This document shows positions 1 through 14,390 of a stretch of 14,390 bases of DNA, piece by piece; position 1 is the stretch's first letter, and every line of letters begins with the position of its first letter. Location: the NCBI GenBank assembly GCA_043819135.1, contig JBDRFG010000036.1:1-14390 (forward strand), in the 5' to 3' direction. Both the position numbers and the translations under genes were made by a program. The notes under the pieces were generated by a model. The model was given only the letters and a program-made list of their open reading frames with translations. It had not been told where the DNA came from and did not search any database. Origin of the DNA: Candidatus Eiseniibacteriota bacterium. GTDB lineage: Bacteria; Joyebacterota; Joyebacteria; Joyebacterales; Joyebacteraceae.

Positions 1-138
1 ACCGACGCGCTGCTTCAGGCGGCCGGCAACGTCTCGATGGCCGCTCGCGCGATCGGTGTGAGCAGGCCCACGATGTACGACCTCATAAGGAAGCACGAAC
101 TGGATCTTTCCGAGTACAAGGGGCTCGGAGGGCCGTAG
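1..138 (+). CDS. 3' end of a sigma-54-dependent (NtrC-family) activator, Fis-type HTH; most similar to PEP-CTERM-box response regulator PrsR (partial, not in ORF track)
   Basis: Frame 1 reads TDALLQAAGNVSMAARAIGVSRPTMYDLIRKHELDLSEYKGLGGP* (TAG 136-138). GNxSxAARxxGVSRxTxY is the Fis/HTH_8 motif. SRPT(L/M)YDL is typical of PrsR, and a PEP-CTERM gene lies nearby. Confidence 0.8.
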   Translation, partial: TDALLQAAGNVSMAARAIGVSRPTMYDLIRKHELDLSEYKGLGGP

Positions 139-191
139 TGCAGGTCCAACGTGACGCCCGCCGTGCGAACGTACCCTACGACCCGGTGAGC

Positions 192-220
192 TTGACACGG
201 GAGCATGAGAGCCATAGAAT
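192..220 (+). promoter_or_regulatory. sigma-70-type promoter for the 358-2749 gene pair
   Basis: TTGACA (192-197), 17-nt spacer, TAGAAT (215-220). Confidence 0.75.
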
Positions 221-357
221 CGCCCTTTCGTGGCGTCCTCGGTGGGAGCGGGACGGGCGGCGCCATCGGAGTTCACGCAGACGATCGTATCTTGTGACAT
301 CTCAGTCCGCGTAACGGCCGACTGGATGTCTCGCGAAGTCACCCAAAGGAGAGCGAG

Positions 358-1116
358 ATGTTCCTGAGAGCAGTGGGAGCGCTCCTTCTTGTAGCCTTGG
401 CGGCCTTGTCTCCGTTTGCGGAGACCGCGTTCGCTGAGGGCCCTCGGGGCTCAGGCAGCGTTGTGATCACGTCTTCCCCTCCGGGGGCGGTGGTCGAGCT
501 GAGGGGAGAGCACGCTTACAGTGGCGTGACGCCGTGGAGGCTCGACAGAGGTCTGTCCGGCGTCTACGAGATCCGCGCTACGAAGACCGGCTACGCAGAC
601 TGGACGGGCAGCACGTCGGTGTCGGCCGGTCGCACCGATTCGCTCTTCATCCGCATGACCAGGAAGTCCCAGATGGCAACCGGGTTGCGCTCCGCGATAC
701 TCCCCGGCTGGGGGCAGTTCTACGCGGGGCAGACGCTGAAGGGCACTGTGTTCCTCCTGGCGGAGGCGGGCGCCGTGACGGGCGTCCTCATCATGGACTC
801 GAAGCGCGAGGACGCCATGCGTGAGCACGAACGCGCTATCAGGGCCTACAACTCCGCCGACCAGGTTGATGAGATCGAAGCGGCATACGACGAGATGCTC
901 AATGCGTTCGACGACGTCGAGCGCTGGCACGAGAATCGCAGGCGGTGGCTCTACGTTGCGGGAGCTGTCTGGATCGCCAACGTGCTCGATGCCACGCTGC
1001 TGGTCCCGAGCGACGGTGGCGGTCTTTTCGCCGGCCTGCCGGACCCCAACGAATCCGGTCTTTTCGCGGCAGTCGATGCGGACAGGACCGTGCTTGGATT
1101 CTCGGTATCGTTCTGA
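358..1116 (+). CDS. Secreted/membrane protein with PEGA domain and DUF5683-like region
   Basis: Signal peptide ending about AFA|E. PEGA-like ITSSPPGAVV...GVTP...GVYEIRATKTGY. RSAILPGWGQFY motif followed by hydrophobic helices and a helical charged segment. Ends TVLGFSVSF. SD AAGGAG upstream. Confidence 0.8.
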   Translation: MFLRAVGALLLVALAALSPFAETAFAEGPRGSGSVVITSSPPGAVVELRGEHAYSGVTPWRLDRGLSGVYEIRATKTGYADWTGSTSVSAGRTDSLFIRMTRKSQMATGLRSAILPGWGQFYAGQTLKGTVFLLAEAGAVTGVLIMDSKREDAMREHERAIRAYNSADQVDEIEAAYDEMLNAFDDVERWHENRRRWLYVAGAVWIANVLDATLLVPSDGGGLFAGLPDPNESGLFAAVDADRTVLGFSVSF

Positions 1117-1147
1117 CCGCAGACCCGATGTTGCCGGAGGTGATTCG

Positions 1148-2749
1148 ATGAAACGATATTTCACTGGAGCCGCGCTCTTTCTGGCCGTGCTCACGGGTCT
1201 GTCGGGCTGCCTGGGGAACATGGAAGTCCCTGGCCACAGCAACCCGCTGGACCCGTCGAACCCGAACACGGCCTCGGTCGAGCCGGACAGGCCCAGAGGA
1301 CTGACCGCTGTGATCTCCGACCGGCTGGTCGAACTCTCGTGGTCGGTGGGCGACGCATCGGCGATAGAGCACTACCGCGTTTATCGGTGGGAGGTGGAGG
1401 ACGAGGACGACGAGGACTACGAGCTTCTCGACACGACCACCGAGATGGAGTACGCGGACGGGGACGTGAAGAACGGGCAGGGGTACTACTACAAGGTGTC
1501 CGGCGTCAACGGCCTGGGTCTCGAGGGCGTGGCGTCTCGAGAGATAGTGGTCATTCCGCGCGTGTTCGGCGTGGCGATAAACCAGGGCAGCCCCAAGACG
1601 TCCTCCAGGAGCGTTACGCTCAGGATGTCCGCCTCGACGGGGACCGATATCATGCAGGTGTCCAACGCCGCTGACATGTCGGACGCGCAGTGGGAGCCGT
1701 ATCAGTCCAGCCGGTCGTGGTCTCTCGAGGCCGGCGACGGCGTGAAGACCGTGTACGCCAGGTTCCGAGACTCGGCCGACAACGAGTCCGCCGTCGTCAG
1801 CGACACCATTGAACTCGACACGAGGGCGGTCATCGAGTCGGTGACGGAGGACTCGGACGGCGAGGATCTGTCGACCGGGGACGTCATCCACTTCACACTG
1901 ACGACGGGAGAGCTCTACGGTGACGCCGCCGTGGATGTGGGGTCGGTCGTTCCCGGGATCACTCTCTACGACGACGGCACGGGCGGAGACGCGGTGCCGA
2001 ACGACGGTGTGTACGAGAGGGACTACACCATCGATCAGGGTGTGGAGGTCATCAACGGTCCCGTGACAGGGACCTTCCGGGACGAGGCGGGCAACCAGGC
2101 CGAGCCCGTGCTGGCGGACGGCACGGTCACGATCCTCGATCCTCCGGCGGCGGTCGTAATGGGCGCCCCGGTGCCGCTCTCGGAGAGCAGGATCGCGCTC
2201 TCGTGGTCGCGCAACAACGACTCGGACTTCTCGGTCTACAAGCTGTACCGATCGTACGTGCCCGGTGTAGATGAGTCCACGCAACGAGAGCTGATCGGGA
2301 ACTTCTCCGACCAGTCCAGCACCGATCACACCGACACGGGACTCGAGCCGGATTCAGCCTACTACTACGCCGTGTACGTCGTCGACCGCGCCGGATTGAC
2401 CAGTATCAGTAATGAGGTAGCAGCGGCCACACTGGTGAATCTGCCTCCCGATCCCGTCGTGCTGTACTCACCCTGGGCGGCAAGTTCCACCTCACTGGAG
2501 CTCAGCTGGTCCGTCAGTGATGCCGAGGACTTCGTGTACTACGAGCTGATAGGGTGGGTGCAGGATCCGCCTTCTCCGCCCGCGACGTCCGAAAAGAGGG
2601 TCATCACGCGGATCGAGACGAGGAGGGAAACCTTCTACACGCACGAGTCACTTGACGCGTCCATGGTCTACTGGTACGAGGTGGCCGTGATCGACTCGTT
2701 CGGCGCCGAGGTCCTTTCGAACACGGTCTCGGGGTCGCCGGCTCCGTAG
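1148..2749 (+). CDS. Lipoprotein (533 aa) with fibronectin type III repeats and a choice-of-anchor X-like domain
   Basis: ATG 1148 with GGAGGT SD. Lipobox LSG-C21. Three Fn3-like units (LSW...Y.VYR...Y.D...Y.Y.V). GDGVKTVYARFRD Ig-like unit. LYDDGTGGDAVPNDGVY motif. The ORF-track start at 821 overlaps the upstream gene and is rejected. Confidence 0.85.
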   Translation: MKRYFTGAALFLAVLTGLSGCLGNMEVPGHSNPLDPSNPNTASVEPDRPRGLTAVISDRLVELSWSVGDASAIEHYRVYRWEVEDEDDEDYELLDTTTEMEYADGDVKNGQGYYYKVSGVNGLGLEGVASREIVVIPRVFGVAINQGSPKTSSRSVTLRMSASTGTDIMQVSNAADMSDAQWEPYQSSRSWSLEAGDGVKTVYARFRDSADNESAVVSDTIELDTRAVIESVTEDSDGEDLSTGDVIHFTLTTGELYGDAAVDVGSVVPGITLYDDGTGGDAVPNDGVYERDYTIDQGVEVINGPVTGTFRDEAGNQAEPVLADGTVTILDPPAAVVMGAPVPLSESRIALSWSRNNDSDFSVYKLYRSYVPGVDESTQRELIGNFSDQSSTDHTDTGLEPDSAYYYAVYVVDRAGLTSISNEVAAATLVNLPPDPVVLYSPWAASSTSLELSWSVSDAEDFVYYELIGWVQDPPSPPATSEKRVITRIETRRETFYTHESLDASMVYWYEVAVIDSFGAEVLSNTVSGSPAP

Positions 2750-2750
2750 C

Positions 2751-2782
2751 GGGGCACACAAGGCGGGGGAACACAAGCCGGG
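2751..2782. repeat. Imperfect tandem repeat, period 15
   Basis: GGGGCACACAAGGCGGG (2751-2767) vs GGGGAACACAAGCCGGG (2766-2782), 15/17 identical. Confidence 0.5.
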
Positions 2783-2908
2783 CCACCCGCGCGAGAGGGG
2801 AGGGCCCGAGGACGGAACCAGTACCGGCGGGGTCCGGCCACGCGCAGCGGCGTGAGGTCGGGCTCCGCGCGTTTCCGACCGCGCCACGGGCGCCGCCGCC
2901 TCAAACTG

Positions 2909-2947
2909 AACTTCCCTCACACAACACCTCCACATGACTACCCCATA
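2909..2947. promoter_or_regulatory. Candidate enhancer (UAS) for a sigma-54 activator
   Basis: CCTCACA 2915-2921, CTCCACA 2928-2934 and CCCCATA 2941-2947 recur at 13-bp spacing, about 95-130 bp upstream of the predicted sigma-54 start. Confidence 0.3.
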
Positions 2948-3012
2948 AGCGCGGGAGCGGCCACTGGCAGCTTCCGCGGCGGTAATCCGCGCCCTCCTTT
3001 GCAACAAGCCTA

Positions 3013-3029
3013 TTGGCACAACTTGTGCA
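3013..3029 (+). promoter_or_regulatory. sigma-54 (RpoN) -24/-12 promoter
   Basis: TTGGCACAACTTGTGCA with GG 3015-3016, N10, GC 3027-3028. Consensus is TGGCACG-N4-TTGC. Predicted TSS ~3040. Confidence 0.7.
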
Positions 3030-3041
3030 TTCCCAGCAGTA

Positions 3042-3253
3042 CGACACAGTCTGTCGCGGCTGGCCAGGTGAGCCAGCCAGGAATTGAGATCAGGCGGGGT
3101 CAAGCGGGCATTCGAGAAGCCTCGGTCGCGCTGGACCGGTGAGACAACCCCCACGCGAGCCGGTCCTCGGGTCTTCCACTGTACTGGCAACCCCCTGTGC
3201 ACCTGTCCTCCTGCCCCGCCGATCTCTTCAAGGTGTGTTCGACAGAGCGACAC
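3042..3253 (+). ncRNA. Candidate structured 5' leader / ncRNA of unknown class
   Basis: Long closing stem 3086-3110 with 3204-3226 encloses three hairpins, two with CAACCCCC in the loop. Extra hairpins at 3042-3056, 3058-3078 and 3233-3253. Confidence 0.45.
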
Positions 3254-3264
3254 GAGGTGGGTAG

Positions 3265-5307
3265 ATGAGGAGATCCGTGAACGTGAGGATCGGCGCTGTG
3301 GCGGCCCTGGCTGCCGCTGTGGTCGTGTCTCTGGCTGTTCCTGACGCTCGGGCCGACGATGAAGGCACCAGGGACGTGACCGCCCATGTGCTCATCGGCG
3401 TCTCTCCCTCGGCGTCTTTCGGTGTGCTGGTCGACGGCGAGGCTCTGCCGGAGACCCCCGTCGAGTCGGACGCGCTCGGGATCCTCGAGTTCGCTGTCAA
3501 CGACGCTGCTCTGCCGCCGGGGTCGCACACGGTCTACTTCGCGCCTCCCGATACCCCTCCCGATCCTCTGGTACTTTCCGCCGTCGCAGTCGAGTCGGTC
3601 ACCACGTCGTCTGCCGTCATCTCGTGGCAGACGAACATCCCGTCGAACTCCCGTGTCCGGTACGGCCTCACCGACGGGTACGGTAATGACACCGGAGTGG
3701 ACCCGGGCATGGTGCTGACCCACAGAATGTCTGTTGAGGGCCTTGCTCCTGAGACGACCTATCACTGCATGGCGGTAAGCACCGACGGGTTCGGCAGAAC
3801 GTCGGATTCCGGCGACCTGACGTTCGAGACTGACCTCGCGCCACTGGAGATATCCGACGTGACAGTGTCGGCGGTGGGACCGACCTGGGCCGTCATTGAC
3901 TGGACGACCACACGGCCGGCCACGTCCACAGTCGAGTACGGTCTGACTGGTGGGTACGGGCAGGAGACCACGGAGGACATCCAGACGGTCGTCGATCACT
4001 CGGTGACGCTCACAGGCCTTCTTGACGGGACGCCGTACCACTTCCGCGTGCACTCCAGTGACGGCGACGGCCTCGAAGCGTCATCGCCGGATTCCACCTT
4101 CACGACCATGGACATCGAGCCGACCGGTCCCCCGATCATCACCGACGTCGAGGCGCTGGTGGAGTGCATCAACTCCGTCACCGTCGCGTGGAGCACGGAC
4201 CGTCCGGCCACCTCCCAGGTGCGGTACGGCACCAGGGAAACGCTGGATCTCTCGACGGAGGCAGACACCACTCTCGTTACGGAGCATGTCGTGTGTGTCG
4301 GGCCGGTGGCGCCGAGGCACGAGTACGCCTTTGTAGTGCTAAGCGCATGCGGTGCGGATACCTCGGAGAGCGTGGCGTCCGTCTTCGCTACGGAGCTTCC
4401 CGCCGCGTCCTTCGCGGCCGGCAAGGGCGTGACAATCGCGAGACCGGGCGTCGTCTGTGTGACGGAGACCACCGCAACGTTGGCGTGGTCGACCGATCGC
4501 CCGTGTACCACGTGGGTGGAGTACGACGTCGGCAAGGACTTCGGCAGCTGCAGCTTCCCGTCTCCGACCAGGGGATGGTCGTACGAGTCGACACTCGACG
4601 GTCTCGCTCCGGGCACTCTCTACTACTATAGAGTGTGCGCCTGGGACGAACTCGGAGGGGAGGTCTGTTCCGAGGAGAGCGAGTTCGTCACCCGCGAGGT
4701 TCTTGACCCGGACCCGCCCAACTCACCGGCAGGCCTGTCGGGCATCGTCGCCGACGGAGGAGTTCTGCTGGAGTGGCTCCCGTGTGCTGAAGACGACTTG
4801 CGTGGATACTTCGTATACCGGCTGCAGTCGGAGCGGCCCGGAGGGGAGATGAATCCGTTCGATATCGAACGCGCTGTCAGGCTGAACGACCTTCCATGGT
4901 CCGGCGTGAGCTACCTCGATGCGGACGTTGGAGAGCAGAGGGTCTACCTCTACGCTGTGAGCGCCGTTGACCACGCGGGCAACGAGAGCCCCGTGTCCGA
5001 GGCAGTGACCGTTCGCCTCGACGAGGAGTTCGGTGGGCTTCGGTTGACCATCCGGCCCAACCCCACGTTCGAGAGTGCGACGCTCGCTTACGTGGCAACT
5101 CCCGGTGCGCCCGTCAGCGCGCGGGTCTATTCCGCGAGCGGCAGGCTCGTGAGAGAGATCACACGTACGGCCGACGCGTCCGGGCAGGGCTCGCTCGTGT
5201 GGGACGGCAGGGATCCCTTCAACGTCCCGGTCGGAAGCGGCGTGTATCTTTGCGAGGTCGTGTCCGGCGGAGAAGTCGCTCGCCGCAAGCTTACCGTGTC
5301 GCGGTGA
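3265..5307 (+). CDS. Secreted multi-Fn3 protein with C-terminal FlgD-Ig / T9SS type A sorting-like domain
   Basis: SD GAGGTG and signal peptide ending ARA|D. Four W-x-T-x-x-P-x-x-[ST]-x-V-x-Y Fn3 repeats plus a fifth Fn3 (YAVSAVDHAGNES). Tail RPNP...VYSASGRLVR...WDGRD...GSGVY...RRKLTVSR. Confidence 0.85.
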   Translation: MRRSVNVRIGAVAALAAAVVVSLAVPDARADDEGTRDVTAHVLIGVSPSASFGVLVDGEALPETPVESDALGILEFAVNDAALPPGSHTVYFAPPDTPPDPLVLSAVAVESVTTSSAVISWQTNIPSNSRVRYGLTDGYGNDTGVDPGMVLTHRMSVEGLAPETTYHCMAVSTDGFGRTSDSGDLTFETDLAPLEISDVTVSAVGPTWAVIDWTTTRPATSTVEYGLTGGYGQETTEDIQTVVDHSVTLTGLLDGTPYHFRVHSSDGDGLEASSPDSTFTTMDIEPTGPPIITDVEALVECINSVTVAWSTDRPATSQVRYGTRETLDLSTEADTTLVTEHVVCVGPVAPRHEYAFVVLSACGADTSESVASVFATELPAASFAAGKGVTIARPGVVCVTETTATLAWSTDRPCTTWVEYDVGKDFGSCSFPSPTRGWSYESTLDGLAPGTLYYYRVCAWDELGGEVCSEESEFVTREVLDPDPPNSPAGLSGIVADGGVLLEWLPCAEDDLRGYFVYRLQSERPGGEMNPFDIERAVRLNDLPWSGVSYLDADVGEQRVYLYAVSAVDHAGNESPVSEAVTVRLDEEFGGLRLTIRPNPTFESATLAYVATPGAPVSARVYSASGRLVREITRTADASGQGSLVWDGRDPFNVPVGSGVYLCEVVSGGEVARRKLTVSR

Positions 5308-5329
5308 CGGCGAGGCGCTCGTCTCGCCG
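5308..5329 (+). terminator. GC-rich hairpin after stop codon (no U-tract; pause, stability or weak terminator)
   Basis: CGGCGAGGC-GCTC-GTCTCGCCG starts immediately after TGA. Confidence 0.4.
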
Positions 5330-5543
5330 CGCCTGAGCCGTCCCTTCGCCCGCCGTGATACCCGCGGCGAGGCTCCCGCCAGCCTTGAATTCCTCCACGA
5401 GGGCGCATGCAACCAGACATTCCGCGCCGCGGCTGGGTGTTGCGACACGCATCGTCGAGGGCGCTCCGGGGAGGACCAGTGGCTCCAAAGCTAGTGCTGT
5501 CAGGGAGTTAGGTCACTTCCTGTTAATACACAACTAATAAGAC

Positions 5544-5600
5544 TTGTCATTGTTATGCTCGTGTGATAGTATTGACAGTAGATGGGGAAAGTGACAGTAT
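5544..5600 (+). promoter_or_regulatory. Tandem sigma-70-type extended -10 promoters for the PEP-CTERM gene
   Basis: TTGTCA (5544-5549)-17-TAGTAT (5567-5572) and TTGACA (5572-5577)-17-CAGTAT (5595-5600). Each -10 is preceded by TGn. AT-rich tract upstream. Confidence 0.6.
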
Positions 5601-5633
5601 TGCGAGCGGGACCGCAATATCCGGAGGTGTGAG

Positions 5634-6404
5634 ATGAGGGCGATTCTGATACTTGCTGTTGTGATGTTGCTCGTTGGCACTACCGTACCCGCTGGGGCGT
5701 CGTTGCTCAGTGATCTGTTCGGTATCACGTTGTCGGTGAACGGGGCAGGTGCGTTCAACAATAACTGGGCACCGGTGACGTCGACGGCCGACTACTTCGT
5801 CGATGACAACTGGAGCACGTACTTCGCGCGGACGCCGCACGGCGGTGAGATGTTCGATATCGAGGCGATCTACTTCGACAACGACGCGAGTTTCGCCTAC
5901 ATGGCCGTCGTGACTTCGTTGCCCGTGCCGGTTGGCGCCTACTATCTCGGGGAGACGGTTCTTCCTGGTGACCTGGCTGTGAACCTCGGCGACGAGCAGT
6001 ACGACGTTGGCGTAGACATCGATGAGGGAACGGGTCAGGTGGCGGATGTGGGGCTGGGTGACTGGTATCAGTCGAGCGTCAATTTCATTGCTGAACTCGG
6101 GCCGACGCACTTCGACGGAGGCGTGCCTCTGGGGCTGGCCTCGATCAACTACTACGACTACGGACTGGTCGAGCGTGGCTACTCGACGTACGTGTTCGAG
6201 ATCACCGTCCCTAGGACCGCCTTCAAGAATCCCGCACACGGTGACGCGATCGGCCTCACCTGGTCGATGGGCTGCCGCAACGACGTCATAAGCCTTGACG
6301 GAACGTTCGACGGCGACACGGTCGTCCCCGAGCCTGCGACGATGCTGCTTCTGGGCTCCGGTCTCCTCGGCATGGTTGGCGCCGTCAGGAGACGCAGGAA
6401 GTAG
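5634..6404 (+). CDS. PEP-CTERM sorting domain-containing protein
   Basis: SD GGAGGT and signal peptide. C-terminus VPEPATMLLLGSGLLGMVGAVRRRRK (VPEP motif, TM helix, basic tail). Confidence 0.95.
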   Translation: MRAILILAVVMLLVGTTVPAGASLLSDLFGITLSVNGAGAFNNNWAPVTSTADYFVDDNWSTYFARTPHGGEMFDIEAIYFDNDASFAYMAVVTSLPVPVGAYYLGETVLPGDLAVNLGDEQYDVGVDIDEGTGQVADVGLGDWYQSSVNFIAELGPTHFDGGVPLGLASINYYDYGLVERGYSTYVFEITVPRTAFKNPAHGDAIGLTWSMGCRNDVISLDGTFDGDTVVPEPATMLLLGSGLLGMVGAVRRRRK

Positions 6405-6430
6405 AACGACACATCTCTGAGGAGACTTTG

Positions 6431-6465
6431 AGGAGCAGGGACGCGAGTGTCCCTGCTCCTTTCTT
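6431..6465 (+). terminator. Intrinsic terminator
   Basis: 12-bp perfect stem AGGAGCAGGGAC / GTCCCTGCTCCT followed by TTCTT. Confidence 0.8.
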
Positions 6466-6599
6466 GATGCGCCGGGCATGGCGCACGTGCAGACGCGGGC
6501 TCCCGTTGCCGCACGGCGCCGTTCGGAGCTGTGGCCGTGTGCACCCCGGGCGTGTATACTCAAACCTGCGGCCCGTTCCACCCAAGAGGGTGTGCACTC

Positions 6600-7838
6600 T
6601 TGAAGATACTGTTCCTGACAGACAACTTCCCTCCGGAGACCAACGCTCCCGCGCTGAGGACCTTCGAGCACGCTCGCGTGTGGGTCGAGGACGGACACGA
6701 CGTCACCGTCATCACGGGAGCGCCGAACTTCCCAACAGGTAAGGTCCACGCCGGCTACCGGAACGGACCCTACTCGGTTGAGGAGATAGAGGGGATTCGC
6801 GTTGTCCGTGTGTGGACATACGTCGCGGCCAACAAGGGGCGCTTCCGCCGCTCGTTCGACTATCTGAGCTTCATGCTGACGTCTCTGCCCGCGGCTCTCA
6901 TCCAGGAGCGCCCCGACATCGTGGTCGGGACATCTCCGCAGCTTCTGACCGTGGTCTCGGCGTGGGCGGCGGCGCGGCTCAGACGCGTACCTTTCGTGTT
7001 CGAACTCCGGGACCTCTGGCCCGAATCGCTGGCGGCCGTCGGCGTCGTCAGCGGCGGCACGGCCATGCGCGGGATCGCGGCCCTGGCCAACTTCCTCTAC
7101 CACAGGGCGGACTGCATAGTCTCCGTGACCAGGTCGTTCGTCGGCGTGCTGAGGGAGCGGGGCATTCCGGAAGGACGGCTCGCGGTCGTCAGGAACGGCG
7201 TGAACCTTTCCCACTTCACTCCGGGTCCGAGGGAGAACGGGTTTCGGGAGGAAGTGGGGGTCCGGCCTGACGTTTTCCTGGCCACCTATGTCGGGACACT
7301 CGGGATGGCCCACGGGCTCAGGAGCGTCATTGCCGCGGCCGAGGCGACGCGTGACGAGCCGATCCACTACCTCCTGGTCGGCGAGGGCGCGGAGAAGGTC
7401 GAGCTCGAACGCGAGGTTAAGAGACTGGAGCTGGCGAACGTCATTTTCCTCGGTGGACAGCCGCGCGAGCGTGTCCCCCTGATCCTTGCCGCGAGCGATG
7501 TCATCCTCGTTCACCTGCGGGACGATCCCCTGTTCTCCACGGTCATCCCCTCGAAGATCTTTGAGGCGATGGCGGTCGCGAAGCCCATTGTGCTGTCGGT
7601 GAAGGGAGAAAGTGCGGAGATAGTAGCGAGTGCGGAAGCGGGCCTGGTCACACGGCCGGAGTCGCCCGCCGAACTGGCCGAGGCCATCCGCAGGCTGCGC
7701 TCCGATCCTGATCTGGCGCGGGAGTTGGGGCGCAACGGCCGCAGCGCGGCGGAGGGGGAGTTCTGCCGCAGGTCAGCCGCGAGAAGGATGATGGGTGTTC
7801 TGGAGGGGACGGTCGGGCGCCGGAGAGGATCCCGCTAG
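6600..7838 (+). CDS. Glycosyltransferase family 4, WbuB-like (412 aa)
   Basis: TTG 6600 with AGAGGG SD. KILFLTDNFPPE, GAPNFPTG, FELRDLWPES, YVGTLGMAHGL and PSKIFEAMA motifs. Confidence 0.9.
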   Translation: MKILFLTDNFPPETNAPALRTFEHARVWVEDGHDVTVITGAPNFPTGKVHAGYRNGPYSVEEIEGIRVVRVWTYVAANKGRFRRSFDYLSFMLTSLPAALIQERPDIVVGTSPQLLTVVSAWAAARLRRVPFVFELRDLWPESLAAVGVVSGGTAMRGIAALANFLYHRADCIVSVTRSFVGVLRERGIPEGRLAVVRNGVNLSHFTPGPRENGFREEVGVRPDVFLATYVGTLGMAHGLRSVIAAAEATRDEPIHYLLVGEGAEKVELEREVKRLELANVIFLGGQPRERVPLILAASDVILVHLRDDPLFSTVIPSKIFEAMAVAKPIVLSVKGESAEIVASAEAGLVTRPESPAELAEAIRRLRSDPDLARELGRNGRSAAEGEFCRRSAARRMMGVLEGTVGRRRGSR

Positions 7839-8590
7839 TCCTCCCACCCCTGATTGTCGAGAAGCTGTTCGTCAGGAACGTCCCTCAGAGGCTTCGCGGG
7901 AGATCCGAGAACGACCTTCTTCGGAGGAGCGTCGCTGGCAAGCACCGATCCGGCCGCCACCACGGCGTCGGCACCGACGGTCTTCCCCGGCAGAATGACC
8001 GCGCCGGCGCCGATTCGTCCGCCCCGCTCGACCGTCACTCCCTTGAAGTGCTTGAAACGCTCTTCCGTCCTGCCGATGAAGTTGTCGTTGGACGTCACCA
8101 CGCCCGGAGCCACAAAGACGCGGTCGGCGAGGCTCGAGTATGCGGTGACGTAGCACTCGCTCTCGAGCTTGCAGTAGCGTCCTATGGTGCAGTGGTTCTC
8201 CACCGTCGCACCCCTGCCGACGATGGTGAAGTCTCCGACAGTCACGTCCTCCCTGACCGACGCCATGTCGGCCACGAGCACCCGAGACCCCAGTTCGCAC
8301 CCGGCGTAGATCACCACGGACGTTCCGATGATGCAGCCGTCGCCGATCCTGGCGGGAGGCAGCGCCGCGTCGCCTGTCGTTGCCGAGTTGGCGGCCTTCA
8401 TCGGCTGCTTCCCCAGAACCGCGCCGTCGTCGATCCTCACGTTGTCACCGATGATGGTGCCGGCGTGGATGACGACGTTGTGTCCGATGACGCATCCGTC
8501 GCCCACCAGCGCCTCCGACTCAATGACCGTGAAGCGGCCGACCGTCGTTCCTTCGCCGACGAGCGCGCTGGGATCGATGTAGCGTTCCAT
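7835..8590 (-). CDS. Hexapeptide-repeat (left-handed beta-helix) N-acyltransferase, WbpD/WxcM-like
   Basis: Many [IV]G-x-x-x-x hexapeptides. VFVAPGVVTSND, IGAGAVILPG and C-terminal GSPAK. SD-like GGAAGGGA upstream. Confidence 0.88.
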   Translation of the reverse strand: MERYIDPSALVGEGTTVGRFTVIESEALVGDGCVIGHNVVIHAGTIIGDNVRIDDGAVLGKQPMKAANSATTGDAALPPARIGDGCIIGTSVVIYAGCELGSRVLVADMASVREDVTVGDFTIVGRGATVENHCTIGRYCKLESECYVTAYSSLADRVFVAPGVVTSNDNFIGRTEERFKHFKGVTVERGGRIGAGAVILPGKTVGADAVVAAGSVLASDAPPKKVVLGSPAKPLRDVPDEQLLDNQGWED

Positions 8591-8671
8591 GGCGGCGTCC
8601 CTTCCGGAGCGGACGCGGCCTTCCGTTGAAGGCCGTCGCCGCTCGTTCAGCTTCCTGATAATGAGTCGGGT

Positions 8672-9679
8672 CTATTCCAGCGTCACCGGCAGGCCGCCGG
8701 ACTTGAGCGACCGCTGGGCGGCGTCGAGGACACGTACGACCCTCATGCCGTCCCTGCCGTCGGAACGCGGAGTCGTGCGGTTCACCACGCACTCCACGAA
8801 GTGCTCGCACTCGAGCTTGAGAGGCTCGCCCATGTTGAGGGCGGGCACGAGGACGTCTCCGGAGCGAAGCGACAGCGACTCGGTGTAGCCCACGTATCTG
8901 CCGTTCGGGTCCACACCCTTGTCGTAGATCCTTATCTTCTCGGAGGCCTGCATGTCGTCGAACACGACCATCCGCTTGCTGCCGACGAGCGTCGTGCGCC
9001 TGACCTTGTGCGGGTCGAGCCACGATACGTGGATCTGAGCCAGTCTGTTGCCGGGAAAGCGCATCCAGAGGAAGACGACGTCCTCGATCTCCGGGCGGAT
9101 GTAGGCAGCCCCGCGGGCTGCCACATCGATGGGCTCTTCGTCCAGGAGATAGAGGATGATCGAGATGTCATGGGGCGCCAGGCTCCAGAGCGCGTTCTCA
9201 TCGCTCCTGATCCGCCCCAGGTTCAAGCGTTCTGAGTAGAGGTAGTACGGGTTGCCCAGCTCGCCGGCGTCGAGCAGCTCCTTCATCTTCGTCACCGCGC
9301 CGTGGTATTCGAGAAGGTGTCCCACCATCAGGATGCGCTTGGCCGCGTCAGCCGCCTCTACAAGCTTGACCGCGTTCTCGTAGGTCAGCGTCATCGGCTT
9401 CTCGACGAACACGTCCTTGCCGGCCTCGATGGCGCGCATCGCGAGCTCGAAATGTGTCACTGCCGGCGTGGCTATCGCCACGGCGTCGATGTCGGGGTCG
9501 GACATGACGGCCTCGGGGTCGGTCTCCACGCGGATGCCGCGGAACCCGTTCAGGGTCGTCTCACACTGCTCCCCGTCGAGATCGCAGCATATCTTGAGAT
9601 GCGCACCCTTGAGGTGCGCGAAGTTCCTGAGGAGATTCCGTCCCCAGGCACCGGTTCCTATCAGCGCGAGATTGACCAA
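8672..9679 (-). CDS. Gfo/Idh/MocA NAD-dependent oxidoreductase, probable nucleotide-sugar 3-dehydrogenase (335 aa)
   Basis: ALIGTGAWG Rossmann motif, ATPAVTH, VFVEKP, LMVGH and SLAPHD. Start placed at TTG 9679 behind AGGGTGG SD. Confidence 0.9.
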   Translation of the reverse strand: MVNLALIGTGAWGRNLLRNFAHLKGAHLKICCDLDGEQCETTLNGFRGIRVETDPEAVMSDPDIDAVAIATPAVTHFELAMRAIEAGKDVFVEKPMTLTYENAVKLVEAADAAKRILMVGHLLEYHGAVTKMKELLDAGELGNPYYLYSERLNLGRIRSDENALWSLAPHDISIILYLLDEEPIDVAARGAAYIRPEIEDVVFLWMRFPGNRLAQIHVSWLDPHKVRRTTLVGSKRMVVFDDMQASEKIRIYDKGVDPNGRYVGYTESLSLRSGDVLVPALNMGEPLKLECEHFVECVVNRTTPRSDGRDGMRVVRVLDAAQRSLKSGGLPVTLE

Positions 9680-9690
9680 CGTTCCACCCT

Positions 9691-9754
9691 TCACGAGACC
9701 GCGGTTGTCGTGACCGGCAGTCACATGACCGCCGGGCGACCGGTCTTTTCATGA
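9691..9754 (-). promoter_or_regulatory. Long imperfect 5'-leader hairpin
   Basis: On the minus strand, nested stems TCATGA/TCGTGA, AGACCG/CGGTCT, GTCG/CGAC and CCGGCGGTC-ATGT-GACTGCCGG. Ends next to the SD. Confidence 0.55.
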
Positions 9755-9760
9755 CCAAGT

Positions 9761-9789
9761 ACTCTATCCGGTTCTTTCCGTTCCCGCAA
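9761..9789 (-). promoter_or_regulatory. Possible sigma-70-type promoter
   Basis: Minus strand TTGCGG-17-TAGAGT. Predicted TSS ~9754 coincides with the start of the leader hairpin. Confidence 0.4.
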
Positions 9790-9801
9790 CCGATAACGTT
9801 T

Positions 9802-9817
9802 TGCAAGAGACGTGCCT
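9802..9817 (-). promoter_or_regulatory. sigma-54 -24/-12 promoter for the oxidoreductase-acyltransferase pair
   Basis: Minus strand AGGCACG-TCTC-TTGCA, a near-consensus GG-N10-GC. Confidence 0.7.
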
Positions 9818-9870
9818 GACGGCTTGGGACGTCCGCCACCGGGGCCGCCGGGCCCCGAATCCGCTCAGCC

Positions 9871-9899
9871 TTGACGTGGGGGCACGGCGACGCTAGAAT
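9871..9899 (+). promoter_or_regulatory. sigma-70-type promoter for the M42-BtpA-cysS unit
   Basis: TTGACG (9871-9876)-17-TAGAAT (9894-9899). Confidence 0.7.
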
Positions 9900-10001
9900 C
9901 GGTCCCCGATATCATCTCCATTCTCTAGGCTCACCAGCAGCTCCGGCCCCGCACAACGCAATGGCGCAGGGGACGGACGTACAGCGGGAAGAGAGGGGCG
10001 A

Positions 10002-11069
10002 TTGGACAAGACCGAGAAGATGTTCAAGGAATTGACCGAGGCAAGCGGCATCTCCGGGTTCGAGGACGAAGTCGCCGACGTAATGGCGGCCCACGTCAAG
10101 AGCGTGGCCAAGATCAGCTACGACAATCTGGGCAGCCTGGTCGCTGAGAAGAAGGGAACCGCCGCCGCGCCCAAGGTCATGATCGCCGGGCACATGGACG
10201 AGATCGGTTTCCTGGTGAAGAACGTGACCAAGGAAGGTTTCATCAAGTTCCTGCCGGTGGGTGGCTGGTGGGGGCACGTCGCGCTGTCTCAGCGCGTCAT
10301 GGTCAAGACCTCAAAGGGCGACTTCCTCGGCATCATCGGTTCCAAGGCGCCCCACATCCTCCAGCCCGAAGAGCGCAAGAAGGTGCTGGACATCGCCGAC
10401 ATGTACATCGACGTCGGGGCGACCGAGAAGTTCGACGTCCGGAAGAAGCTGGGAGTGCGCCCCGGCGACCAGATCATACCGGTCTCCGATTTCGCGATCC
10501 TCGGCAACAGCAAGACCTACGCGGCCAAGGCCTGGGACGATCGCATCGGCGTCGCGGCCGTCATCGACACCCTCAACAAGGTCGGCAAGAGCCACCCGAA
10601 CACCCTGTACGGCGTCGGGACGGTTCAGGAGGAGGTCGGTCTGAGGGGAGCGCGGACGAGCGCACAGATGGTCGAGCCGGACGTTGCCTTCGCCATCGAC
10701 GTTACGATAGCCACCGACACTCCCGGATGTGAGGGGGCCGGTGAGAACCTGGGCTCCGGTGTCGGCATAATGGTGTTCGACGGCAGCGCAATACCCAGCA
10801 GACGCCTGCGCGACTTCGTCATTAACGTCGCCGAGAAGAGCAAGATCCCGTTCGTGTTGACCGCTCTCACCAGGGGCGGGACAGACAGCGGGACGATCCA
10901 GTTCGCCAAGTGGGGCGTGCCCTGTCTGACGTTCGCGATCTCGACGCGCTACATACACGGGCACGTGGGCGTTCTGCACAGAGATGACTACGACAACCTC
11001 GTCAAGCTCCTGATCGCCGTGGTCAAGAAGCTCGACAAGAAGACCGTCGCGTCCCTGACCAGAGGGTAG
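10002..11069 (+). CDS. M42 family metallopeptidase (TET-like aminopeptidase)
   Basis: TTG start. GISGFE, GHMDEIG, KAWDDR, QEEVGLRGA, GGTD and RYIH metal-ligand motifs. Confidence 0.93.
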   Translation: MDKTEKMFKELTEASGISGFEDEVADVMAAHVKSVAKISYDNLGSLVAEKKGTAAAPKVMIAGHMDEIGFLVKNVTKEGFIKFLPVGGWWGHVALSQRVMVKTSKGDFLGIIGSKAPHILQPEERKKVLDIADMYIDVGATEKFDVRKKLGVRPGDQIIPVSDFAILGNSKTYAAKAWDDRIGVAAVIDTLNKVGKSHPNTLYGVGTVQEEVGLRGARTSAQMVEPDVAFAIDVTIATDTPGCEGAGENLGSGVGIMVFDGSAIPSRRLRDFVINVAEKSKIPFVLTALTRGGTDSGTIQFAKWGVPCLTFAISTRYIHGHVGVLHRDDYDNLVKLLIAVVKKLDKKTVASLTRG

Positions 11070-11196
11070 GTCACGACGAGGGACTCGACGCAGTGACGCC
11101 GCCGCACGGGGCTCATGGTCTTCGGGCCGCGATCTCGTGCGGCGGCCACATCTGGTCACGTGCGCCCGTGGTCGGCGCGCGATCCCGGGAGCCGTC

Positions 11197-12000
11197 ATGA
11201 GCACCATGGAAGACATCTTCGGCCGGTCCGGCAGTCTGATCGGAGTGGTCCACCTGCCTCCGCTGCCCGGAAGCTCCGGATGGGACGGTGACATGCCGCG
11301 GGTCGTCGGAAGAGCGCTTGACGACGCGGCGGCTCTCCAGGCGGCCGGCTTCGATGGGATCATCCTCGAGAACTTCGGCGACGCCCCGTTCTCCGGAGGC
11401 TTCGCCGGAAGGGGACCCGTCGCTGCCATGGCCGCCGTCGGTGCTCTCGTGGCTGTGAAGACGTCTCTGCCCCTCGGGATCAACGTGCTCCGGAGCGACG
11501 CTCTGTCGGCCGTGGCAGTGGCCGCCGCCGTGGGGGCGCGCTTCATCAGGGTGAACGTCCACATAGGCGCCGCCGCGACCGACCAGGGCATCATCCAGGG
11601 GAACGCGCGCGAGACGCTCCTGGCCATCCGCGAGGTGGCGCCCCGGCTAAGGGTATTCGCCGACGTCTTTGTGAAGCACGCGAGACCTCTGGGGAGCGAG
11701 GACATCGAACAGGCTGCGGTCGAACTCGTTGAACGAGGGAAGGCGGCGGCGGTCATCGTCACGGGCGACATGACGGGCTCGCCTGGTTCGGCCGAAGAGC
11801 TGGCACGTGTTCGAGCGGCCGTGCCCGAAACGCCCATCATAGCAGGAAGCGGTGTCACGGCGGAGACCGTCGCGGACGTGCTCGGCAGGTGCGACGCCGT
11901 GATCGTCGGAAGCTGCATAATGGAGGAAGGGCGCGCCGCCCACCCCATAGATCCCGCGCGCGCCGCTCTCTTCGTCAGGGCCGCGAGAGCCGAGCAGTAG
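11197..12000 (+). CDS. BtpA/SgcQ family TIM-barrel protein (267 aa)
   Basis: IGVVHLPPLPGS, ENFGDAPF, GINVLR, FIRVN, ADVFVKHA and GSGVT motifs. ATG 11197 follows GGGAG. Confidence 0.9.
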   Translation: MSTMEDIFGRSGSLIGVVHLPPLPGSSGWDGDMPRVVGRALDDAAALQAAGFDGIILENFGDAPFSGGFAGRGPVAAMAAVGALVAVKTSLPLGINVLRSDALSAVAVAAAVGARFIRVNVHIGAAATDQGIIQGNARETLLAIREVAPRLRVFADVFVKHARPLGSEDIEQAAVELVERGKAAAVIVTGDMTGSPGSAEELARVRAAVPETPIIAGSGVTAETVADVLGRCDAVIVGSCIMEEGRAAHPIDPARAALFVRAARAEQ

Positions 12001-12042
12001 GCACCGCGACGTTCTTCGGGAGCACAGCAAAGGGAGACCAAC

Positions 12043-13452
12043 ATGCTGAGGATCTACGACACGCTCGCGGGCAAGAAGAAAGAGTTCGTGCCGGTGCGCG
12101 AGGGCAAGGTCGGCATGTACTTCTGCGGAATGACCGTGCAGGCGGAGCCGCACGTGGGGCACATGAGGGTCGCGCTGGTGTCGGACGTGTTCCGCCGCTA
12201 CTTCCGGTACAAGGGCTACGACGTCACTCTGGTGATCAACTTCACCGACATCGACGACAAGATCATTCAGAAGGCCGAGGCGGAGGGCGTCGAGTACACG
12301 GTGATCGCGAAGAGGAACACCGACAAGTTCATGGCGTTCCTCGAGTTCCTGGGCGCCGAGGAGGCGGACCACTACCCTCGGGCGACTGGCCACATAGCCG
12401 AGATAATCGAACTCGTCAAGACACTCGTCGAGAAGGGTTTCGCCTACGAGTCGCAGGGGGACGTCTATTTCGAGGTCAGGAAGTTCTCGGACTATGGCAA
12501 GCTCTCGAAGAAGAACCTCGATGACCTGATTGCCGGGGCCAGCGAGAGGGTCGATATTGACGACAGGAAGCGTAATCCGGAGGACTTCTGCCTGTGGAAG
12601 GGCGCCAAAGAAGGCGAACCCTCCTGGGAGAGCCCGTGGGGGCAAGGGAGACCCGGGTGGCACATCGAGTGCTCCGCCATGTCGACGAAGTACCTGGGCG
12701 AGCACTTCGACATCCACGGGGGCGGAACGGAACTGATATTCCCACACCATGAGAACGAGATAGCGCAGCACGAGGCGGCGACCGGGCATCCTTATGTAAA
12801 CCATTGGGTGCACCACGGCCTGGTTAATCTGGTCGGAGAGAAGATGTCGAAGTCGACGGGGCACTTCAAGACCATGGAGGAGATCTCCAGGCGCTTCCCG
12901 GCCGACGTAGTCAGGTTCTACCTGCTCTCCACGCACTACAGGTCCGAGATCGAGTTCTCCGACGAGCGGCTGAACGAGGCCGGCGTGGCCATAGGGCGGT
13001 TCGAGAACCTCTTCAGGACTCTGTCGCGGACGGTGGGCCCGGAGGGAGAGGGGGAGGCGGCCGACGCGCCGAGTCCACCCGTGTCCGATCTCAAGGAGAA
13101 GTTCCTTGACGCGATGGACGATGACCTAAACACCGCACAGGCAATAGGTTACATGTTTGAATTAGTCCGTGTCATCAACCAGGGGCTTGATTCCGGAGCA
13201 GAGCAGCCCATCCTGCGCGCGGACAGGGCCGTGCTGAGGGAGCTGTCTGATATCTTGGGACTTCTGAAACATACAAAGAGCAAGGACCGGAGAGTGCCCG
13301 ATGAGATCGCCGTAATGGTCCGGGAGCGCTCTGACGCGCGCGCCGCGAAGGACTGGGTTCGTGCCGACGAGCTTCGGGCCGCGATAGAGGAGGCGGGCTA
13401 CCTGGTGGAGGACACCGGGGCGGGCTCCGTTGCCAGGAAGGTCAAGGAGTAG
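12043..13452 (+). CDS. cysS: Cysteine--tRNA ligase
   Basis: HVGH (HIGH) and KMSKS motifs, [35 protein letters not shown] and AMDDDLNT. Confidence 0.98.
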
Positions 13453-13520
13453 CTGAGCCGGGTGCCGGGACCAGTGGGGCGGAAGAGTGGCCGCTGAGCC
13501 GGGAGAAGCGGCGTGTCGCG

Positions 13521-13589
13521 GAAAATCATGAGAAAACCGCTGAAAACCGCTGATTTCGTGTTGACAGCGCAGCACTTCTCCAATAGCAT
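13521..13589 (+). promoter_or_regulatory. tRNA-tuf operon promoter with phased upstream A-tracts
   Basis: TTGACA (13561-13566)-17-TAGCAT (13584-13589). GAAAA at 13521, 13532 and 13542. Confidence 0.75.
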
Positions 13590-13656
13590 ATAGCGTTTGT
13601 GCAGCTGGCGGCTTCTGGAACAAGCCCCGCAGCCGGGTTGTGTTCGCATATCCCGG

Positions 13657-13731
13657 GCTGGCGTAGCTCAACGGTAGAGCACCTCACTTGTAATGAGGTG
13701 GTTGGGGGTTCGATTCCTCTCGCCAGCTCCA
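13657..13731 (+). tRNA. tRNA-Thr(TGT)
   Basis: Cloverleaf GCTGGCG...CGCCAGC-T-CCA. Anticodon arm CCTCA-CTTGTAA-TGAGG. GGTTCGATTCC. Confidence 0.97.
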
Positions 13732-13791
13732 GAATTGGAGGTAAGTCCGACGCCCCAGGGGCCTGGTGTTTCCCGGCGTCGAGGACGATCC

Positions 13792-13876
13792 GGGGGGGTT
13801 CCCGAGCGGTCAAAGGGAACAGACTGTAAATCTGTCGGCGAAGCCTTCGGAGGTTCGAATCCTCCCCCCCCCACCA
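13792..13876 (+). tRNA. tRNA-Tyr(GTA)
   Basis: Anticodon arm ACAGA-CTGTAAA-TCTGT, long variable arm GGC-GAA-GCC, T-arm GGAGG-TTCGAAT-CCTCC, A-CCA end. Confidence 0.97.
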
Positions 13877-13908
13877 CTCCAGTGGTGCCAAATAGAGGGA
13901 AGGTAGGT

Positions 13909-13985
13909 GCGGGAATAGCTCAGTTGGCTAGAGCATCAGCCTTCCAAGCTGAGGGTCGCGGGTTCGAGTCCCGTTTCCCGCTCCA
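13909..13985 (+). tRNA. tRNA-Gly(TCC)
   Basis: GCGGGAA...TTCCCGC-T-CCA. Anticodon arm TCAGC-CTTCCAA-GCTGA. Confidence 0.97.
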
Positions 13986-14014
13986 AAATACTGCGCCCGT
14001 CGCTACGTAAAGGG

Positions 14015-14043
14015 TTGACTGCGACGGCATGTGCTGATAGACT
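14015..14043 (+). promoter_or_regulatory. Internal sigma-70-type promoter upstream of tRNA-Thr(GGT)-tuf
   Basis: TTGACT (14015-14020)-17-TAGACT (14038-14043) with TGn extension. Confidence 0.6.
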
Positions 14044-14094
14044 GATCGGTCAATTCGAACCGGCGGCTGTCGGTGGCCGGCGTGGCATATCTGC

Positions 14095-14170
<76 letters not shown>

Positions 14171-14253
14171 CATCGTTGAGGCTTTCACTCGCCAGACGGG
14201 TGCCTCGGCCAGCGCAGAGAATAGCGAACTCCTGTTGATGGAGGAGAAGGAAG

Positions 14254-14390
14254 ATGGCGAAGAAGAAATTCGAGAGGACGAAGCCTCACGTCAACGTTGG
14301 GACGATCGGTCACGTTGACCATGGCAAGTCCACGCTGACGTCGGCGATGACGCTGTGCCTGGAGAAGCGGGGACTCGCGAAGTATATGGC
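14254..14390 (+). CDS. tuf: Elongation factor Tu, 5' part (not in ORF track)
   Basis: [45 protein letters not shown]. It follows the Thr-Tyr-Gly-Thr tRNA cluster, as in the classic tufB locus. Confidence 0.97.

Follow-up and report, generated by a model that had tools for sequence, protein, structure and literature searches.

The window analysed here is a stretch of 14,390 nt (contig JBDRFG010000036.1, positions 1 to 14,390) from a genome deposited as Candidatus Eiseniibacteriota, and its RNA locus lies in an exosortase/PEP-CTERM/EPS cluster with the gene order exosortase, EpsI, TPR protein, PrsR-like activator, PEGA protein, FN3 lipoprotein, RNA, FN3/FlgD-Ig secreted protein and PEP-CTERM protein. 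Positions 1-113 of the window, at the contig start, overlap the end of contig C146, so that the PrsR-like activator and the exosortase lie directly upstream. The NtrC-like (PrsR-like) regulator gene stands two genes upstream of the RNA and is not adjacent to it; the cluster activators score below the cut-off of their family (TIGR02915), and in some genera a PrsK-like kinase is found beside the PrsR-like activator. Downstream of the RNA, the segment 3265-6404 sets a protein with a T9SS-like C-terminal domain, shared by ~52 genes of the genome, beside a PEP-CTERM protein, and an ordinary cluster of tRNA-Thr, Tyr, Gly and Thr follows cysS at 13657-14170. The features at the locus are as follows.

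1148..2749, + strand: upstream FN3 predicted lipoprotein, a gene of the exosortase/PEP-CTERM/EPS cluster
3000..3006, + strand: TGTTAC-like box (TGCAAC here), ~7 nt upstream of the -24 element
3014..3029, + strand: sigma-54 -24/-12 box TGGCAC-N5-TGTGCA (GG-N10-GC), with a predicted transcription start near 3040
3040..3085, + strand: variable 5' segment of 39-51 nt in relatives; one or two hairpins are usual, sequence not conserved
3086..3226, + strand: RNA core, non-coding, 136-142 nt in homologues, 44 invariant columns
3086..3109, + strand: 5' strand of the closing stem (P1a-P1b-P1c), pairing with 3205-3226; compensatory change in 8 of 17 counted pairs, the inner pair among them
3118..3126, + strand: invariant AGCCUCGGU in the central region (36 of 36 homologues)
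3133..3166, + strand: covarying hairpin with a C-run in its loop; 4 of 7 pairs compensatory
3186..3202, + strand: conserved GGC-(A/U)ACCCCCU-..-GCAC segment with the second C-run (C5 in 36 of 36); competing pairings predicted
3205..3226, + strand: 3' strand of the closing stem, with no U-tract terminator after it
3265..5307, + strand: downstream secreted FN3-repeat protein with a FlgD-Ig/T9SS-like C-terminal domain (Pfam, NCBIfam), likely co-transcribed

The sigma-54 box lies 47-59 nt 5' of the core in 26 of 27 genomes and in all 16 metagenome copies, and rpoN is present in the source genome. In one genome (G004, contig C164; 90% complete), where no exosortase was found, a ~90-nt deletion, either real or an assembly artefact, removes the promoter and the 5' segment and leaves the core intact. 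The T, G, A and C columns of the TGTTAC-like box are invariant among 26 aligned loci; the box is too close to the -24 element for a typical enhancer, and its exact pattern accompanies few of the genome's other GGCAY sites. In 25 of 27 genomes the next gene is the FN3 gene (3265-5307 here), its start codon within ~20-60 nt of the RNA; of the other two genomes, one has a contig end and one is without the gene. No terminator was found 3' of the RNA, and the primary transcript would therefore run into the FN3 gene.

Fold and conservation of the core

The original prediction, made from the letters of the sequence, had proposed a multi-branch structured RNA at 3042-3253, not recognised as a known riboswitch, SRP, 6S or tRNA and downstream of a sigma-54 promoter. 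All of the pairings and motifs that it listed were found in place, including 8 of 10 pairs between 3101-3110 and 3204-3213. The Rfam search that it called for returned no match at the locus: the Rfam 15 covariance models gave nothing at E ≤ 5 in a scan of the window or at E ≤ 10 across 3000-3300, and a tRNA search found no tRNA there. Identity with SRP RNA, RNase P RNA or tmRNA was rejected, each being found elsewhere in the genome, and a bacterial Y RNA was also rejected, with Rsr (TROVE) in two of 31 genomes and not in G000. In G000, tmRNA was called twice with one and the same tag peptide, on contigs C26 and C109, possibly an assembly duplication.

Among the 43 copies recovered there are 36 distinct sequences, with identity averaging 74% and never below 65%. 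Compensatory change is seen in 12 of 33 pairs, every one of which belongs to the closing stem or the 3133-3166 hairpin, so that covariation bears out the two helices GGACCGG/CCGGTCC and closing stem of the original fold. Column pair 28-136, the inner pair of the closing stem, occurs as five pair types and ranks third by corrected mutual information; because it covaries and extends the closing stem, an earlier model with a GGC/GCC hairpin was dropped. A rod model with the extended closing stem has 96.9% of cells paired vs 28-51% in slid controls; it is the slid control and the pair types that carry weight here, the shuffle control being inflated by sequence kinship. Other parts of the predicted fold found no such backing: none of the 4 pairs in the CGAG/CTCG hairpin is compensatory, nor any of the 5 in the TGTAC/GTGCA hairpin, where 61.5% of cells are paired, and the flanking hairpins conserve neither sequence nor register in relatives.

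Folding energy set the core apart from the span originally flagged. The core reached z -2.39 (3 of 200 shuffles equally good), whereas 3042-3253 as a whole reached z -1.56 (12 of 200). Over the 36 distinct homologues, mean z was -3.4 on the plus strand, with 30 below -2, and -2.1 on the minus strand. The proposed plus-strand orientation is supported by 84 G-U against 9 A-C among 864 cells and by the direction of the sigma-54-type promoter; raw MFE, lower on the plus strand in just 9 of 36 homologues, counts against it. Coding is disfavoured for the core, which we regard as non-coding because homologue lengths (136-142 nt) do not vary in triplets and variation is flat across frames; no codon periodicity was seen either.

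The original prediction laid most stress on an identical octamer in two loops, and this part did not hold. No more than 5 of 36 homologues have CAACCCCC in both loops, 14 of 200 shuffles equal the two copies seen in the window, and the doubled octamer that was stressed is peculiar to a single genus. What is kept instead are C5 runs, in 33 of 36 homologues in the first loop and in 36 of 36 in the second run, both predicted to be mostly unpaired; the loop of the 3133-3166 hairpin reads CCCCCAC in most homologues and UCCUCUC in 3 of 36. Conservation thus lies in the C-runs and in the invariant AGCCUCGGU of the central region, not in the twin CAACCCCC. Most of the 44 invariant columns fall in the central region.

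Distribution across the phylum

The covariance model detected a single copy in each of 27 of the phylum's 31 genomes; these span all eight genera and include 20 of 20 near-complete genomes, and the four without a match are 57-78% complete. A DNA search matched 26 of the family's 30 other genomes strongly, and in 30 genomes from outside the family nothing scored better than E 0.08. The element occurs once in the source genome and once per genome elsewhere, with none of the dispersed copies of a REP/MITE-like repeat. Of the 52 loci returned by a pattern scan of metagenomes, 16 are true copies (≥107 bits) and 36 are chance matches, and the exact two-motif pattern had 0 matches in viral contigs. 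No match to the covariance model came from 57 non-family loci surrounding homologues of the upstream lipoprotein, from five single genomes, or from 3 × 151 genomes of other phyla (Krumholzibacteriia, Zixibacteria and KSB1 loci), of which 20 candidates per genome were scored without a positive control; given that these last searches were filtered, remote homologues in other phyla may exist.

The RNA is present in a Ca. Effluviviaceae locus, and the one-family phylum formed by these genomes fits Ca. Effluviviacota in those sections of its description that concern us (PMC11323493). The host phylum is uncultured and widespread in seep sediment. Literature searches on PEP-CTERM/PrsR/sRNA and on VGIX01 non-coding RNA found no description of this RNA and no described non-coding RNA for the phylum; the supplements of large structured-RNA surveys could list the motif.

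It is highly improbable that the locus holds no functional RNA and is a repeat, a DNA-level site or a relic. The weak folding of the full span against shuffles would fit such a reading; it is contradicted by the single copy, by compensatory changes with a G-U bias, and by a core identity of 86-90% between genomes with 51-58% identity at four-fold sites. We are therefore almost certain that this is a real, uncatalogued and phylum-restricted structured RNA. The claim of an undescribed structured RNA behind a sigma-54 promoter is supported, with Rfam empty at the locus, phylum-wide presence and covariation; what is new here is a ~140-nt RNA family behind a sigma-54-type promoter with no Rfam entry, which adds a well-bounded, covariation-supported RNA family core to an uncultured seep-sediment phylum.

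Cis or trans action

The original prediction left two modes of action side by side, a cis-regulatory leader or a processed sRNA. Neither is proven, and we tentatively favour a processed trans-acting pairing RNA. On this model, the sigma-54-type promoter would drive a transcript that begins with the RNA and runs into the FN3 gene, its transcription probably activated by the PrsR-like enhancer-binding protein of the EPS/exosortase cluster. The stable 140-nt RNA is likely cut from the start of this transcript, and nucleases would trim it to the ends of the closing stem, as other end-paired stable RNAs are trimmed to their stem ends. Its C-rich segments likely pair with G-rich ribosome-binding sites of other mRNAs, presumably by G-C pairing that needs no chaperone, as for 6C RNA; Hfq was found in 0 of 31 genomes. 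Also on the side of this model, the C-rich segments showed no preference for the cognate RBS (-14.7 kcal/mol for their own vs -14.1 kcal/mol for those of other species); this rests on a fixed-window comparison of cognate and non-cognate pairs, used because the first in-frame start was wrong in several rows.

The genome that bears most directly on this question is G006 (98% complete, contig C33), where promoter and RNA are kept between an arnF-like gene and a GT4 gene, as an island flanked by deletions of ~23 kb and ~3 kb, and where the FN3 gene orthologue, the FN3 lipoprotein, the cluster activator and the exosortase were not found. The G006 core keeps 44 of 45 otherwise invariant columns. It differs from that of G005 at 18 positions, whereas the core of G000 differs at 15, although four-fold identity to G005 is 0.63-0.80 for G006 vs 0.52-0.58 for G000; this greater drift of the core at closer four-fold identity suggests some relaxation. 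Because G006 keeps promoter and RNA without the neighbouring genes, its retention of them favours a processed trans-acting RNA, as read from a single metagenome assembly with an undated loss. The link to surface-protein expression suggested in the original prediction accordingly divides: it agrees with the gene order in 25 of 27 genomes, and G006 speaks against it.

The same neighbourhood can be read as a cis-acting 5' leader that, as a protein-binding element or a riboswitch-like aptamer, would govern how the FN3 mRNA is translated or how stable it is. We consider this possible but less likely than trans action. The RNA sits directly 5' of the same gene in nearly every genome that carries it, ~20-60 nt from the start codon and with no terminator between them, and its invariant junction nucleotides resemble an aptamer. 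Retention in G006, where no FN3 gene orthologue was found, argues against a leader, as do the lack of a conserved expression platform or RBS-sequestering helix and two FN3-gene paralogues that have no RNA upstream. Metatranscriptome data came as contigs, which cannot give ends, strand or level. A low-depth contig (depth 2.3-2.8) lies on the core in 5 of the 6 runs examined, from a set of 8, and one RNA-library contig continues 154 nt past 3208, beyond the core, as a leader would. One run also has a contig across the promoter, and a DNA origin is therefore possible; the closest-matching run covers the FN3 CDS and not the RNA, missing cover there being no evidence of absence.

Several results also weigh against the processed trans-acting RNA that we favour. 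A genome-wide duplex screen, a crude one over 2126 called genes, singled out no target and showed no enrichment among the 52 genes with the same C-terminal domain as the FN3 gene. G004 has the core without the promoter. The invariant columns, moreover, are many and not all C-rich, 44 being more than a simple pairing seed needs.

In a third reading, the RNA would be a stable protein-binding decoy resembling 6S RNA: rod-shaped, with a bubble at its centre, it would sequester a protein, perhaps RNA polymerase or the sigma-54 holoenzyme. This we consider unlikely. The end-paired rod fits the alignment, presence is single-copy and housekeeping-like, and the 3' strand carries a sigma-54-box-like GG-N11-GC (33 of 36) or GG-N10-GC (3 of 36). 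The rod lies ~10 kcal/mol above the MFE, however, and its inner pairs are without compensatory change; the box-like motif is short and mostly has N11 spacing in place of N10; and the RNA locus has no Rfam 6S score, while a separate 110-nt RNA that scores weakly as 6S has a model that misses this RNA. The narrower version, a decoy for sigma-54 RNA polymerase that would act as the sigma-54 counterpart of 6S RNA and feed back on sigma-54 transcription across the phylum, is very doubtful; binding to the sigma-54 holoenzyme would make the RNA a new kind of transcription regulator.

If the RNA acts in trans, it would link a sigma-54 envelope/EPS programme to post-transcriptional control in an Hfq-less lineage. 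The RNA, 140 nt long with 44 invariant positions, can be synthesised in vitro and assayed for ligands, proteins or targets without culture.

Comparison with known RNAs and regulons

The setting of the RNA recalls the PrsK-PrsR sigma-54 regulon of PEP-CTERM/exosortase systems, for which DNA motifs have been described (PMC1569441). Shared with it are a sigma-54 box 5' of a surface-protein gene and an exosortase/EPS cluster with a PrsR-like activator; the difference is that the passages of that work on the regulon deal in DNA motifs and mention no RNA, and that the activator here falls below the TIGR02915 cut-off (PMC1569441). The TTTACA enhancer of PrsK-PrsR systems was not evident upstream of the RNA.

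6S RNA is end-paired, rod-shaped, single-copy and co-transcribed with a downstream gene. The RNA here is likewise end-paired, possibly rod-shaped and single-copy, at the head of the downstream gene's transcript; it differs from 6S RNA (RF00013) in having no RF00013 score, in a central bubble that covariation does not support and in the presence of a weak 6S match elsewhere in the genome. That match is a second phylum-wide RNA of ~110 nt (L038:1496-1611; G000:C106:73418-73533), found in 30 of 31 genomes, which scores 32.6 bits against a cut-off of 46.4 and is without ~80 nt of the model's outer arm. A sigma-54-type GGCAY-N6-TGC box lies upstream of it in 28 of 28 anchorable copies (29 examined), and it is either a short 6S RNA under a sigma-54 promoter or another new family. 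Homology between it and the RNA described here was rejected, as neither model matches the other. Complementarity of the RNA described here to this 6S-like RNA, to SRP RNA, to tmRNA and to RNase P RNA was not above shuffles.

Pxr of Myxococcus (RF01812) is a sigma-54-dependent, processed sRNA according to the portions of two studies that treat it (PMC10217877, PMC5684412). Its likeness to our RNA lies in the sigma-54 promoter, a nearby NtrC-like regulator gene and processing, the last predicted here. Pxr is described there as three consecutive stem-loops, whereas the RNA here is enclosed by an end-pairing stem; RF01812 gave no match at the RNA locus and a 16.6-bit match on another contig only.

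The actinobacterial 6C RNA, in the account of it that we draw on, pairs through C-rich loops without chaperones (PMC6486639), and the likeness extends to conserved C-runs in loops, a high-GC host, the absence of Hfq and proposed pairing with G-rich ribosome-binding sites (PMC6486639). The host here is not actinobacterial, and the 6C family model does not match. A further difference from 6C RNA is that the C-runs here are enclosed by a long end-pairing stem whose core holds the invariant AGCCUCGGU, and that the RNA follows a sigma-54 box and heads an mRNA. It belongs to neither the 6C nor the Pxr family.
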